Positions 1 to 10,638 of a stretch of DNA of 10,638 nt are shown here, piece after piece; position 1 is the first letter of the stretch, and each line of letters starts with the position of its first letter. A model generated the notes under the pieces. The model was not told where the DNA came from, made no database searches, and saw only the letters and a program-made list of their open reading frames with translations. Both the position numbers and the translations under genes were made by a program. Source of the DNA: Coleofasciculus chthonoplastes F2-STO-03 (GTDB lineage: Bacteria > Cyanobacteriota > Cyanobacteriia > Cyanobacteriales > Coleofasciculaceae); the NCBI GenBank assembly GCA_040222015.1, contig JAVJWO010000098.1:1-10638 (forward strand), written 5' to 3'.

Positions 1-163
1 TTCACTGATTGCTTAACTGAACTCGACAGAGCCTGATACTGGCGTTCATATCAAGGTGTCGTGACCCGTCTAACGTAGACTACGGTGAGTCTCAGTCTGC
101 ACGTTCCGACGCAAGTCCAGATATGCTTAGGTGTGCATAGTCCTGTATAGGTTTTTCGGAACG
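1..163 (-). ncRNA. HEARO/omegaRNA-like scaffold of an IscB/IsrB (IS200/IS605 OMEGA) element, 5' part; continues beyond the left edge
   Basis: The minus strand reads CAGACTGAG(99-91)-hairpin AGACT/AGTCT(77-92)-CTACGTT(78-72)-GTCACGACACC-TTGATATG-AAC-GCCAGT(43-38)-ATCAG-GCTCTGTCG(32-24)-TTAAGCA. This matches the motif order I recall for IscB-associated RNAs. Stems seen: 24-28/57-61, 34-38/49-53, 102-109/156-163. The 5' boundary is uncertain (about 139 or 163). No iscB ORF is inside the window. Confidence 0.7.
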
Positions 164-479
164 GTAAGTTCCAACCGTTGAAGTGACATACTCCAGACAG
201 CGATACAAGTATACGCTGCTGGCTTCTCCCACCTACTACATCTATAATGATCTCTATTTCTAGAGCGTAGGATTCGAGCTTTTTATAGTGAGTAAATTTA
301 TAAGCTATCACCAACAACCTAAATAGGGGAAAGGTCGCCCGAGGAATGGCTTGATCCGCCCGTTGACTCCAAGCCAGGTCTGTTGGCATGGAATGGTGCA
401 GAAGTTAACAAAATGTTGGAAATCTTAAGAAAATTTGTATCCTAGAAGGATATAGCACTTTAATTTTTATAACGCATCG

Positions 480-2786
480 GTGCAAGAAGACTTCCGACTG
501 ATTATCGACTTCGTATCTGTTCTGGCGTCAGCAGCGGCTGGCGGACTCTTGGCATCCTCATGCCGTCAACCCCCGCTCTTGGGCTATATCGTCGGGGGTA
601 TGATTGTGGGTCCGGCGGGTTTGGGTCTAATTAAAGAGGTGATCCAAATTGAAACCCTGGCTCAGTTTGGGGTGGCATTTTTGCTCTTTGCCCTAGGGGT
701 GGAGTTTTCCCTGGCGGAACTGAAAAAAGTGCAAAAGATTGCCTTAGGTGGTGGTGGACTCCAGATCGTCCTGACTATCTTAGTCACCACATTAGTTTCT
801 CTGGGCATGGGTTGGGTCACGTCTCCCGCCCAAGGTGTGTTTTTGGGAGGAATTTTGTCGTTGTCATCCACGGCGGTGGTTCTCAAATGCTTGATGGAAC
901 GCAACGAAACCGAAACCCCCCACGGGCAAATCATGCTAGGGATTTTGGTGGTGCAAGATTTGGCATTGGGGTTAATGTTAGCAGTACTCCCGGCTTTAGA
1001 CCAACCCACTGAAGTGATTGGTATAGCCGTGGGACTTGCCCTATTGAAAATTGGTCTATTTGCGGCGGGTGCTATTGCTGTAGGGATATGGTTAATTCCG
1101 TCGTTATTACGATTTCTTGCCCGTACTGAAAGCCGAGAGTTATTTTTACTCGGGGTTGTGGGTTTATGTATGGGAATTGCCCTGTTGACGGAAGAGTTGG
1201 GACTTTCGATTGAAATGGGGGCGTTTGTGGCGGGGTTAATGATTTCCGAGGTGGAATATGCCGATCAAACCCTGACCTACGTCGAACCCCTGCGGGATGT
1301 CTTTGCTGCCCTATTTTTTGCCGCGATTGGGATGCTAATCGATCCGATTTTTCTGTGGACTAACCTGGAATTAATTTTGGGATTGGTTTTCCTAGTTTCG
1401 GTGGGTAAAGTTTTAATTATAACACCAATTGTAAAGCTATTTGGCTATCCCTTAAAAACAGCAATTCTGGCAGGTCTGGGGTTAGCTCAAATTGGGGAAT
1501 TTTCGTTTGTGTTAGCCAGTGAAGGACAAACTTTGGGATTGGTTTCTCGCCCGGTTTATCTGTTAATTTTAGGAACAACGGCGGTGACGTTAATTGTGAC
1601 ACCGTTTCTCTTACGATTAACACCTTTGGCATTGAACTGGTTAGAGAATTTTCCGCCCTTAAAACGGTATTTTGAACCGATGGAAACTCCGAAAGCTGTA
1701 TCACTTAATAGCCAACAGCTAAAAGACCATGTGGTGATTTGTGGGTATGGAAACAGTGGTAGCAATTTAGTGCGACTGATGCGAGAGCATAATTATCCTA
1801 TCGTAGTGGTTGAGCAGTCAGAGCAGGTAATTGGGCAATTAAGAGATGCGGGAATTCCTTATGTTTACGGCAATGCGGCGAGTTTACACGTTTTGGATAA
1901 AGCTGGGGTAGAACGCGCCAGATCGATGGTAATTGTCTTGGCTGACGCCATGAGTAGTCGGCTATGTTTGAAGCGATCGCTAGAATTAAACCCTAATTTA
2001 GATATCGTCGTGCGGGCGAATAAGGATCGGGAGATCGAACTGCTGTATCAACTGGGGGCGCGAGAGGTGGTGCAACCGGAGTTTGAGGCGTCTTTGGAGT
2101 TAGCGACGCATTTGATGTCAGGAATTGGTATACCCGATTGGATGATTCAGCAGGAAATGGAAAAAATTCGCAGTTCCCATTATCTGGATTTGCGCCCCGA
2201 ACAACCTCAGTCTCAAATTGCCCGCGATTTACGGACGGCGGCTGAGATGATGAATAGTAAGTGGTATGATTTGCCAGAGAATTCTCCACTGACGGGTATG
2301 ACGTTAGAAGAAGCTGATATTCGCCGCTTAACTGGGGTTAGTTTGGTGGCTATTCGTCGGGCTGAGGGTGAGGAAATCGATTATCCCGATGCTGGGGTGA
2401 GTTTGGAGGAAGGTGATCACCTTTTAGCGGTGGGTGAACCCGATGAACTGTCTGCCTTTAAGAAATTGGCAGAGGGGGAAATGACAAATCCTGCCACCAG
2501 CAGTCCCTGTCAATGGGTGTTGGTATCCGAAGAGAGTCCCGCCCATGGGCAAACCCTATCTCAACTCCATTGGCGGCGTCAATATGGGATTCAAGTACAG
2601 GCAATTCGTAGAGAAGGGAAGTTTATCCCCTTTCCCGATGGCAATGCCGAAATTCGAGAGCAAGATCATCTACTATTGTGTGGCGGAAGTTATCCCCTGA
2701 ATCAATTACAGGAGTGGTTAACGCCACTCCCTGATAGTAGTATCACCGATGTTCCGCTTCATCAAACTCTGACAAATGACAAATGA
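480..2786 (+). CDS. CPA2-family cation:proton antiporter (KefB/KefC-like) with TrkA_N (RCK_N) and two TrkA_C domains
   Basis: 768-aa ORF with a GTG start. About 390 aa of hydrophobic TM region with CPA2 motifs (LLFALGVEFS, LSSTAVV, VVQD, LAQIGEFSFVL), a Rossmann motif VVICGYGNSG, and two C-terminal RCK_C-like repeats (SPLTGMTL..AIRR; SPAHGQTL..AIRR). Confidence 0.95.
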   Translation: MQEDFRLIIDFVSVLASAAAGGLLASSCRQPPLLGYIVGGMIVGPAGLGLIKEVIQIETLAQFGVAFLLFALGVEFSLAELKKVQKIALGGGGLQIVLTILVTTLVSLGMGWVTSPAQGVFLGGILSLSSTAVVLKCLMERNETETPHGQIMLGILVVQDLALGLMLAVLPALDQPTEVIGIAVGLALLKIGLFAAGAIAVGIWLIPSLLRFLARTESRELFLLGVVGLCMGIALLTEELGLSIEMGAFVAGLMISEVEYADQTLTYVEPLRDVFAALFFAAIGMLIDPIFLWTNLELILGLVFLVSVGKVLIITPIVKLFGYPLKTAILAGLGLAQIGEFSFVLASEGQTLGLVSRPVYLLILGTTAVTLIVTPFLLRLTPLALNWLENFPPLKRYFEPMETPKAVSLNSQQLKDHVVICGYGNSGSNLVRLMREHNYPIVVVEQSEQVIGQLRDAGIPYVYGNAASLHVLDKAGVERARSMVIVLADAMSSRLCLKRSLELNPNLDIVVRANKDREIELLYQLGAREVVQPEFEASLELATHLMSGIGIPDWMIQQEMEKIRSSHYLDLRPEQPQSQIARDLRTAAEMMNSKWYDLPENSPLTGMTLEEADIRRLTGVSLVAIRRAEGEEIDYPDAGVSLEEGDHLLAVGEPDELSAFKKLAEGEMTNPATSSPCQWVLVSEESPAHGQTLSQLHWRRQYGIQVQAIRREGKFIPFPDGNAEIREQDHLLLCGGSYPLNQLQEWLTPLPDSSITDVPLHQTLTNDK

Positions 2787-9977: not shown

Positions 9978-10016
9978 CATAATACTTTACCGACACTCTA
10001 GGAATGATTTAATTAA

Positions 10017-10430
10017 TCAGTTAGCAATTAATTCCCAAGTAGAAATTATTGATTTCTGTCGATGGTGAATCGGCTGATTTCTGATGTAGTTAGCTACCTG
10101 GTCAAGATGATCATGGCTAACACTGAATGCGCCGTAGCTGCCTTGCCATTTGAAGAATTCCCCCGGATTAATTTCATGCGTAACTAAATGAGAAGAACTT
10201 CCTTTAATCTGTTTGATTAAGTTGGAAACCGCTAGAGTAGGGGGGAAACTCATTAATAGATGTACATGATCTTCAATACCGCCCAAGGCAATAACTGTAC
10301 ATTTTAGCTGTTGGCATTCTCCAATAATTGCTGCATAAACTGCCTCTTGAATATCACTCGTAATCAAAGGCAATCTATCCCAGGTTGCCCAAACACAATG
10401 GAGATACAACTGTGTAAAATTAGACCTCAT
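10017..10430 (-). CDS. tnpA: Y1 HUH transposase (IS200-like TnpA / REP-associated tyrosine transposase), 137 aa
   Basis: LYLHCVWATWDR, HUH motif EDHVHLL, KQIKGSSS, FKWQGSYGAFSVS and the catalytic-Tyr helix NYIRNQ..HH. ATG at 10430; the ORF-track extension runs through the repeats. Confidence 0.93.
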   Translation of the reverse strand: MRSNFTQLYLHCVWATWDRLPLITSDIQEAVYAAIIGECQQLKCTVIALGGIEDHVHLLMSFPPTLAVSNLIKQIKGSSSHLVTHEINPGEFFKWQGSYGAFSVSHDHLDQVANYIRNQPIHHRQKSIISTWELIAN

Positions 10431-10437
10431 ATTTCTT

Positions 10438-10486
10438 GAACCCGCGAAGGCGGGTTTGGTTTGTGTAGCCGCGATTTCCATCGCCC
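10438..10486 (+). repeat. Two-hairpin REP-like element (family B, right copy)
   Basis: GAACCCGC-GAAG-GCGGGTTT, GGTTTGT, GTAG(10465-10468)-CC-GCGAT-TTCC-ATCGC-CC, starting 8 nt upstream of the tnpA ATG. Confidence 0.9.
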
Positions 10487-10638
10487 CTGAACTAAACAAT
10501 CGCTGAACCGAACCATCGCCCCTGAACAATCGCTGAACAATTTCAACTGAACCGAACCATCGCCCCTGAACAATCGCTGAACAATTTCAACTGAACCGAA
10601 CCATCGCCCCTGAACAATCGCTGAACAATTTCAACTGA
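10478..10638. repeat. Perfect 44-bp tandem repeat (3 full units plus partials), truncated by the window end
   Basis: CTGAACCGAACCATCGCCCCTGAACAATCGCTGAACAATTTCAA at 10503, 10547 and 10591, the start of a 4th unit at 10635, and a degenerate lead-in at 10478-10502. Confidence 0.95.

Follow-up and report, generated by a model that had tools for sequence, protein, structure and literature searches.

A probable 3'-truncated remnant of a non-autonomous IscB/omegaRNA element with IS607-type ends in Coleofasciculus chthonoplastes

The known literature places IscB in transposons of the IS200/IS605 family. "IscB in IS605" is the sole listing for IscB in the relevant part of PMC13565253, IscB elements share their ends with tnpB elements of IS605 that are read in antisense (PMC4810608), and tnpB but not iscB genes associate with serine resolvases (PMC10055086). 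A link between IscB and IS607 is not given in the pertinent passages of PMC10691335, PMC9956272, PMC9755519 and PMC8987985, and the literature passages searched for such a link state none, the omegaRNA groups of Altae-Tran 2021 lying outside that scope. ISC2, of the IS200/IS605 family, is a non-autonomous element of about 1.6 kb with an omegaRNA and an HNH IscB, and it leaves no target duplication (PMC4810608; PMC10055086). The marks of the IS607 family (IS607, IS1535, ISC1926) are GG termini, a GG target, no duplication and helically phased repeats at the ends (PMC6188088). CboIStron has a TAM, TGGG, that is told apart from its own end, TCGG, at the third position (10.1101/2023.11.20.567912).

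In the present study, we analysed a window of 10,638 nt (the whole stretch of DNA considered here), which forms the start of contig C98 in a 7.7-Mb genome with 45% G+C (G000); the gene content and HIP1 sites fit a cyanobacterium. Judging from sequence comparison, positions 164 to 1 of its minus strand are very probably a 3'-truncated remnant of a non-autonomous IscB/omegaRNA element with IS607-type ends, likely inserted by a TnpA-S acting in trans (Table 1). As the ends match those of IS607-type transposons, the family likely moves by a serine recombinase and not by the usual enzyme. The elements resemble the IS607 family, CboIStron included, in the four marks given above and in a G-rich target, (N)GGG, with an own end that reads (A/G)CGG. 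However, they differ from this family in that the cargo is IscB with a 5'-guide omegaRNA, not TnpB, that tnpA-S is not inside, and that a TAM CCC(N) is predicted, lying 3' of the target.

Table 1. Features of the window and of the adjoining contig
Feature	Position	Strand	Basis or remark
OmegaRNA scaffold, 5' 164 nt of a 186-nt, 3'-truncated copy; putative IS607-type right end	1..164	-	
Remaining 22 nt of the scaffold	contig C33, 42274-42295		
HEARO core: CAGAC pseudoknot strand, P2, 5' strand of the long helix, GACACC hairpin, GCCAG loop, TTAA	1..99	-	cmscan alignment and consensus fold
Terminal dinucleotide CC (GG on the transposon top strand), putative 2-bp crossover core common to the target	163..164	-	identity among copies ends there; empty site in G008; clean empty sites of two sister insertions
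P1 (guide-adaptor stem), 5' arm CGTTCCGA	156..163	-	
P1, 3' arm TCGGAACG; TG and the conserved CAG come next	102..109	-	
Four 10-bp-phased imperfect direct repeats in the P1 loop, CCTATACAGG, ACTATGCACA, CCTAAGCATA, TCTGGACTTG; putative serine-transposase binding array	112..151	-	
Host flank, would-be guide, 18 nt up to the next insertion	165..182	-	present in the G008 empty site
Separate right-end mini-element, presumably IS605-type, ends GGAGTATGTCAC, left-truncated, outside the IscB element	183..295	-	99% copies at C163 and C178
Neighbouring host gene, CPA2/Kef-type cation:proton antiporter, read away from the scaffold	480..2786	+	best matches YbaL/KefC, below their cut-offs

The initial annotation had described an IscB omegaRNA/HEARO-type scaffold with an atypical first stem, a reading borne out by a HEARO match, near-identical copies and a covarying stem. 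The chain of minus-strand motifs on which it was based (CAGACTGAG at 99-91, CTACGTT at 78-72, GTCACGACACC at 65-55, GCCAGT at 43-38, GCTCTGTCG at 32-24 and TTAA at 16-13) was confirmed in place, and both of the first stems that it had offered, P1 of Table 1 and TGCAC 137-133/GTGCA 102-98, were placed correctly. The pairings called intact are so only as far as the window reaches; this copy lacks the 3' strands that the long helix and the pseudoknot would need. The covariance-model check that it had proposed, with the HEARO model (Rfam RF02033, gathering score 83 bits), matched 133..1 of the minus strand with an E-value of 8.4e-6, at 41 bits, below the gathering score; the match is cut at its 3' side by the contig edge, and the continuation of the window copy on C33 (see below) gives 44.4 bits, also under the 83-bit cut-off. 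The sister copies at C169 and C16 reach 94.5 and 90.5 bits, and three of four CCG-type relatives pass the cut-off (L164, 100.7; L141, 100; L143, 85.5; L139 fails with 68). In total, G000 contains 37 HEARO matches, 26 of them above the cut-off, mostly of the usual GTCA type and several with iscB. Paralogous copies sharing the scaffold, which the annotation had proposed to align, are present at C2, C169, C16, C72, C124 and C216; they are near-identical with different flanks, and the part of the scaffold in the window is 99-100% identical to C2. From CAG on, the core fold and the motifs are those of the HEARO/OgeuIscB omegaRNA (PMC9640706), with a 5' guide taken from flanking DNA, and in intact relatives the scaffold lies upstream of iscB, as for IscB omegaRNAs. 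Unlike HEARO omegaRNA, the scaffold starts with CCG and not GTCA, four 10-bp-phased repeats replace the usual hairpins of the P1 loop, and the window copy is without about 41 nt of the 3' scaffold and without the gene. The atypical first stem is an IS607-type transposon end, which the earlier reading had overlooked.

Among 401 genomes of the order, a search pattern for the 5' part of the scaffold had 32 matches, spread over 14 genomes from four families; its reversed control had one. In a sample of the phylum, six of 401 genomes matched, all from the same order, to which the pattern itself had been fitted. A metagenome scan returned 25 stretches, of which 18 are further scaffolds and seven look like chance; 26 non-cyanobacterial matches of a pattern that was one letter too long were also taken as chance. 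The scaffold pattern had no match in viral contigs, where three IscB relatives were found, none of CCG type, and no plasmid record covered 80% of the element as DNA, the best protein match there being 59.9%.

To compare the two first stems, 24 scaffolds were aligned, drawn from 29 complete ones less near-copies and long inserts, plus the window. The stem CGTTCCGA/TCGGAACG stood, with 94.9% of cells paired and three pairs changed on both sides; TGCAC/GTGCA, with 60% of cells paired and no pairs changed on both sides, was rejected as the first stem. RNAalifold recovers the former, and in its fold the next motif, TGCAGAC, is paired to the scaffold's 3' end. In G000, seven copies have a 5' end that starts with CCG, each with a different flank; therefore, 164 is the first position of the scaffold, and a guide would be read from 165 upward. 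The alignment of paralogous copies suggested for finding where identity stops gave the same boundary, since identity ends at CC, 164-163 of the minus strand. The would-be guide, 165-182, lies inside the window. This flank has no second match of at least 14 nt in G000. A contig of DNA run X1 spans the junction of flank and scaffold (136-295). The flank (window 156-178, minus strand) also holds AACGGT, which is able to pair with ACCGTT at the scaffold start, and the predicted fold of the window copy uses pairing of the flank with the P1 5' arm instead of P1.

Intact relatives have the layout CC, omegaRNA (about 227 nt), iscB (about 425 aa), about 50-65 nt, and CC. Among 20 extended loci, the scaffold is followed by a full ORF (422-430 aa) in 12 and by one that the contig end cuts short in another, while seven have none; relatives also hold mini-elements without a gene that are complete at both ends and measure about 320-345 nt (L151, L155, L161, L166). 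G000 very likely holds two full elements, C169+C148 and C16+C146, the middles of which are missing from the assembly (smallest contig 1522 nt). The empty site of the first reads GGTACAAA CC CATAAC (a key shown at two of eight loci in relatives) and that of the second GACAGAAG CC CCCTGT (six of seven loci). At both two-ended sites there is a single CC when empty and a CC at each junction when filled, and a target-site duplication is absent, so that GG at both termini and one GG in the target, as in IS607, are found at two clean empty sites. The target starts with CCC at eight of the nine sites with a usable empty allele, the exception being GCC (L151 vs C40); for C72 and C214 no usable empty site was found. 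CC followed by C was seen in 23 of 23 far ends found (24 loci given), and in one of five spurious later candidates. Two sites have their far end fused to the C-run that comes next, at distances of about 50 and 274 nt, which would fit an adjacent deletion.

The autocorrelation of the P1 loop at 10 nt was 0.547 in the 24 scaffolds, whereas shuffles gave a mean of 0.26 and a maximum of 0.31, and 18 canonical scaffolds gave 0.23. Left-end repeats, two to three related motifs, were recognised by eye. Of eight CCGTTTAAAAAAACCT matches in G037, the three that were read sit inside another transposase ORF and are no ends. A far-end DNA hairpin reaching -8 kcal/mol occurs in none of 13 CCG-type and in 26 of 35 other IscB elements (median z 0.27 vs -1.76), a comparison of segments of 47-68 nt with segments of 80 nt that leaves out four of 63 rows. 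The elements show a CCG start and a CCC target, and not the GTCA-type start and AT-rich target of IS200/IS605; as for the right-end hairpin of that family, P1 pairs, yet it is also needed as RNA.

Eight further ends in G000, which read CCGCTTC.AAAAACCT, close a gene of about 500 aa, or fragments of it, in antisense; the gene is TnpB-like, a weak label (NF040570, 32 bits, cut-off 100). The same gene lies directly after an IS607 tnpA at C60 (NF033518, 212 bits), and C20 retains a tnpA stub. In the first 20 nt, 17 IscB ends share on average 15.6 identical positions with the TnpB ends, against 7.3 for 20,000 random CC sites; the figure is taken over kin that are not independent, and it is partly built in, because ends found by pattern were selected on some of those bases. 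Furthermore, L167 at its far end and the C69 TnpB element at its left end are identical over 17 nt, and iscB is oriented opposite to tnpB in the elements that share ends. No tnpA-S was found inside the element at the 20 extended loci, and a crude motif filter flagged none at 25 metagenome loci; the element is therefore filed as non-autonomous and IS607-ended, not as IS607. One separate, divergent tnpA-S lies 279 nt outside L144. IS607 tnpA is present in the host genomes G000 (five over the cut-off), G102, G335, G175 and G221, and was not found in G037 (99% complete, with two near-identical copies), G016 and G281. As regards gene adjacency, the elements agree with PMC10055086. Because they are non-autonomous, gene adjacency misses IS607-ended IscB elements; their ends reveal them.

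Like ISC2, the elements are non-autonomous, combine an omegaRNA with an HNH IscB, are about 1.6 kb long, leave no duplication, and have ends in common with a tnpB element read oppositely (PMC4810608; PMC10055086). Unlike ISC2, the partner element is IS607 (tnpA-S) and not IS605 (Y1), the core is CC and the target CCC instead of GT/GR or N/ATGA, and the far-end hairpin is absent. ISC2-1_SM of Salipiger mucosus (PMC4810608) shares with them a CC start, a stem, TG and CAGAC, an MSNYVF-type start and a target CC/CG, and the short repeats of its loop recur inverted at the far end, a likeness compared by eye only. It differs in its alphaproteobacterial host, its other end sequence and the spacing of its repeats, 9 nt. 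In Table 1 and the supplement of PMC4810608, this element is filed under Y1 hairpin ends, and those parts make no IS607 link. Set beside ours by eye, ISC2-1_SM is probably an earlier sighting of such elements.

As to what follows the contig edge, the window starts at a collapsed 119-nt repeat of the assembly, and only C33 and C63 share its first 33 nt as continuations. The iscB or isrB gene expected just beyond the left edge is absent from both. In G008, the peptidase gene of C33 lies upstream of the same kef gene and the empty site reads TTA CCC GATCG; C63 was rejected as the left neighbour, as G005 shows that it belongs with C2. C33, picked by synteny, is thus taken as the left neighbour, a join that rests on one relative, G008 (one of five examined), plus G005 for the alternative join, and so the window copy would have 186 nt. 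It ends in GTGCTG, followed by CGATCG, with no target base lost compared with the G008 empty site. The copy has lost iscB, the far end and about 41 nt of scaffold; these 41 nt contain the strands closing the long helix and the pseudoknot, and the pseudoknot is essential in the OgeuIscB omegaRNA (PMC9640706). With these strands gone and the flank without a second match, the window copy is likely dead, an inactive remnant, and the loss of 3' scaffold also makes it a poor candidate for the orphan trans-acting omegaRNA that had been suggested as the other possibility. No promoter-like site was found on the minus strand of window 1-520. Three metatranscriptome assemblies contain the element of a relative, in contigs that end 28 nt upstream of CC; since contigs cannot show an RNA end, this stop carries no weight as expression evidence.

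About 100 bp of one intergenic stretch hold three insertions. The mini-element at 183..295, which we take to be of IS605 type from its end motif, is absent from the G008 empty site. Copies with GGAGTATGTCAC lie at C163:8822-8975 and C178:73034-73180 in G000, and a second remnant lies on C33 at about 42205-42232; for both the window mini-element and the C33 remnant, the insertion point is preceded by TTTAG in the empty allele of G008. A TnpB-type right end lies 18 nt before the window scaffold (spacer 165-182), and on C18 of G000 (about 60286-60303) a canonical omegaRNA is preceded, at a distance of 17 nt, by an IS607-TnpB right end. Such a spacer could serve both RNAs as a guide; spacing of this kind was seen for only one of 146 IS605-like end motifs in G000 and may be chance. 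Farther along, an IS200-type Y1 transposase (10017-10529, minus strand; NF033573, 80 bits; weak REP-associated match) has REP-like sequence repeated on both sides, at about 9990-10070 and 10470-10530, as read from ORF translations.

One alternative explanation of the ends is that these are ordinary ISC elements moved by a Y1 transposase of IS200/IS605, with ends that are C-rich by chance and with P1 as the right-end hairpin. P1 does fold, and would form a terminal hairpin, but the far end is without one. Y1 elements leave no duplication either and carry look-alike motifs at both junctions; however, the GG core and the G-rich target contrast with the AT-rich targets of IS605 (PMC13565253), and the repeats are 10-bp-phased. 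A Y1 transposase is present in G000 (window 10017-10529, NF033573), IS607 tnpA was not found in three genomes with the element (G037, G016, G281), iscB is never beside a serine resolvase in the associations given in PMC10055086, and the look-alike ISC2-1_SM was filed under Y1 in 2016 (PMC4810608); against this, both ends match elements linked to tnpA-S, not IS605 ends. We regard movement by Y1 as unlikely.

For the window copy itself, two other explanations bear on its state. It might be a working stand-alone omegaRNA that guides IscB in trans with 165-182 as guide, a possibility to which we give slightly less credence still: stand-alone omegaRNAs do act in trans (PMC10691335), two full elements are very likely present in G000, gene-less mini-elements are complete in relatives and the window part is 99-100% identical to C2, but the closing strands of the long helix and of the pseudoknot essential in OgeuIscB (PMC9640706) are missing, G000 has no target of at least 14 nt elsewhere, window 1-520 has no promoter-like site on the minus strand, and the predicted fold has the flank itself paired to the 5' arm of P1. 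That the truncation is an effect of assembly, with an intact iscB past the contig edge, appears very improbable. Although the window begins at the collapsed 119-nt repeat, and the iscB middles of sister copies are missing from an assembly whose smallest contig is 1522 nt, the only continuations, C33 and C63, both leave the element, both joins fit empty sites of relatives, and the copies that reach iscB differ by 12% from the window copy.

The protein P0001 is an IscB (NF040563, 458 bits), and the IscBs of relatives have the RuvC I-III and HNH motifs, the PLMP motif reading PMNP/PLNP. In a quick tree of 66 IscBs, without an outgroup root and with long-branch L010 left out, 19 CCG-type proteins, six repeat-rich G036 variants and one long-branch row were split from 40 others with an SH-aLRT of 99; the CCG-type proteins alone do not form one side of any branch. 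An earlier tree without four CCG proteins gave the same grouping. The motif R[VL]CP[MY]S[DH]G in the C-terminal domain occurs in all 19 CCG-type proteins and in none of 47 others, most of which read R[VI]A.R.TG at that position. In OgeuIscB, the TAM is read by the beta2-beta3 hairpin of the C-terminal domain (PMC9640706), and by analogy the motif may be the TAM-reading hairpin; the PDB alignment did not cover this segment. From the common branch and the change in this putative hairpin, a CCC TAM is predicted for CCG-type IscB. The CCC target and own CCG end mirror the TGGG and TCGG of CboIStron.

In the preferred reading, that of an IS607-ended element moved in trans, TnpA-S dimers would bind the 10-bp-phased repeats and excise a double-stranded circle at the GG cores, and the circle would integrate at (N)GGG. 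The right-end DNA, transcribed from an outside promoter, would become the 5' end of the omegaRNA, with the flank supplying the guide; because the same DNA would have both roles, the repeat array would be looped out in P1. IscB is predicted to cut the empty donor site, given a guide match and a 3' TAM CCC(N), and to spare its own end, reading CCG, so that the element would be restored by recombination. At the window locus, the element would have entered TTA/CCC/GATCG and lost everything after scaffold nt 186.

Related variants were also observed. The G036 sister variants L214, L215, L219, L223, L227, L230 and L241 have repeat-rich P1 loops and start with CA or CT; their first dinucleotide recurs at the far end, CAG or CTG stands near that end, and they have their own C-terminal hairpin sequences. 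One repeat motif, at L273, is common to IS607-TnpB ends and the G036 variants, and the terminal bases differ. IscB elements starting with GCTATC have GGACAA repeats and far ends that stop at GATCGC (HIP1), and are found at C12:29558, C23:33557, C176:55569 and C195:31437 of G000 and at L205, L208, L217 and L224; their IscBs are scattered over three positions of the tree, so that ends of this kind may have been captured more than once. At C1:1-300 and C57:1-480 of G000 lies a second variant of CCG type (CCGCTCG ... GAGCGTG CAG), whose iscB has an internal deletion; G005 and G002 have its far end at the same site, whereas four other relatives lack it. L133 (G175:C355), an element of CCG type, sits inside the start of a canonical GTCAGG omegaRNA, about 30 nt in, so that its guide would be scaffold sequence of the other family.

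A wider and tentative explanation, which we hold to be possible but rather doubtful, is that one IscB lineage moved from Y1 ends to IS607 ends and then changed its 2-bp core and TAM-reading hairpin each time. The cores would then comprise CC in the present elements, CA and CT (G036 sisters), with GC in separate HIP1-landing lineages. If true, compact Cas9 ancestors whose TAMs are C-rich (CCC, CAG, CTG) would form a natural series, in which the guide-adaptor loop doubles as a transposase binding array.

The window copy itself is a remnant only. It marks a variant group of IscB elements with IS607-type ends and a predicted CCC TAM, whose IscB of about 425 aa with a predicted CCC(N) TAM is a possible tool. 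If the IS607-ended reading is right, the RNA-guided homing of IscB would have a second transposase as its partner, unrelated to the first, and the TAM of the nuclease and the target of the transposase would have converged on GG once more.
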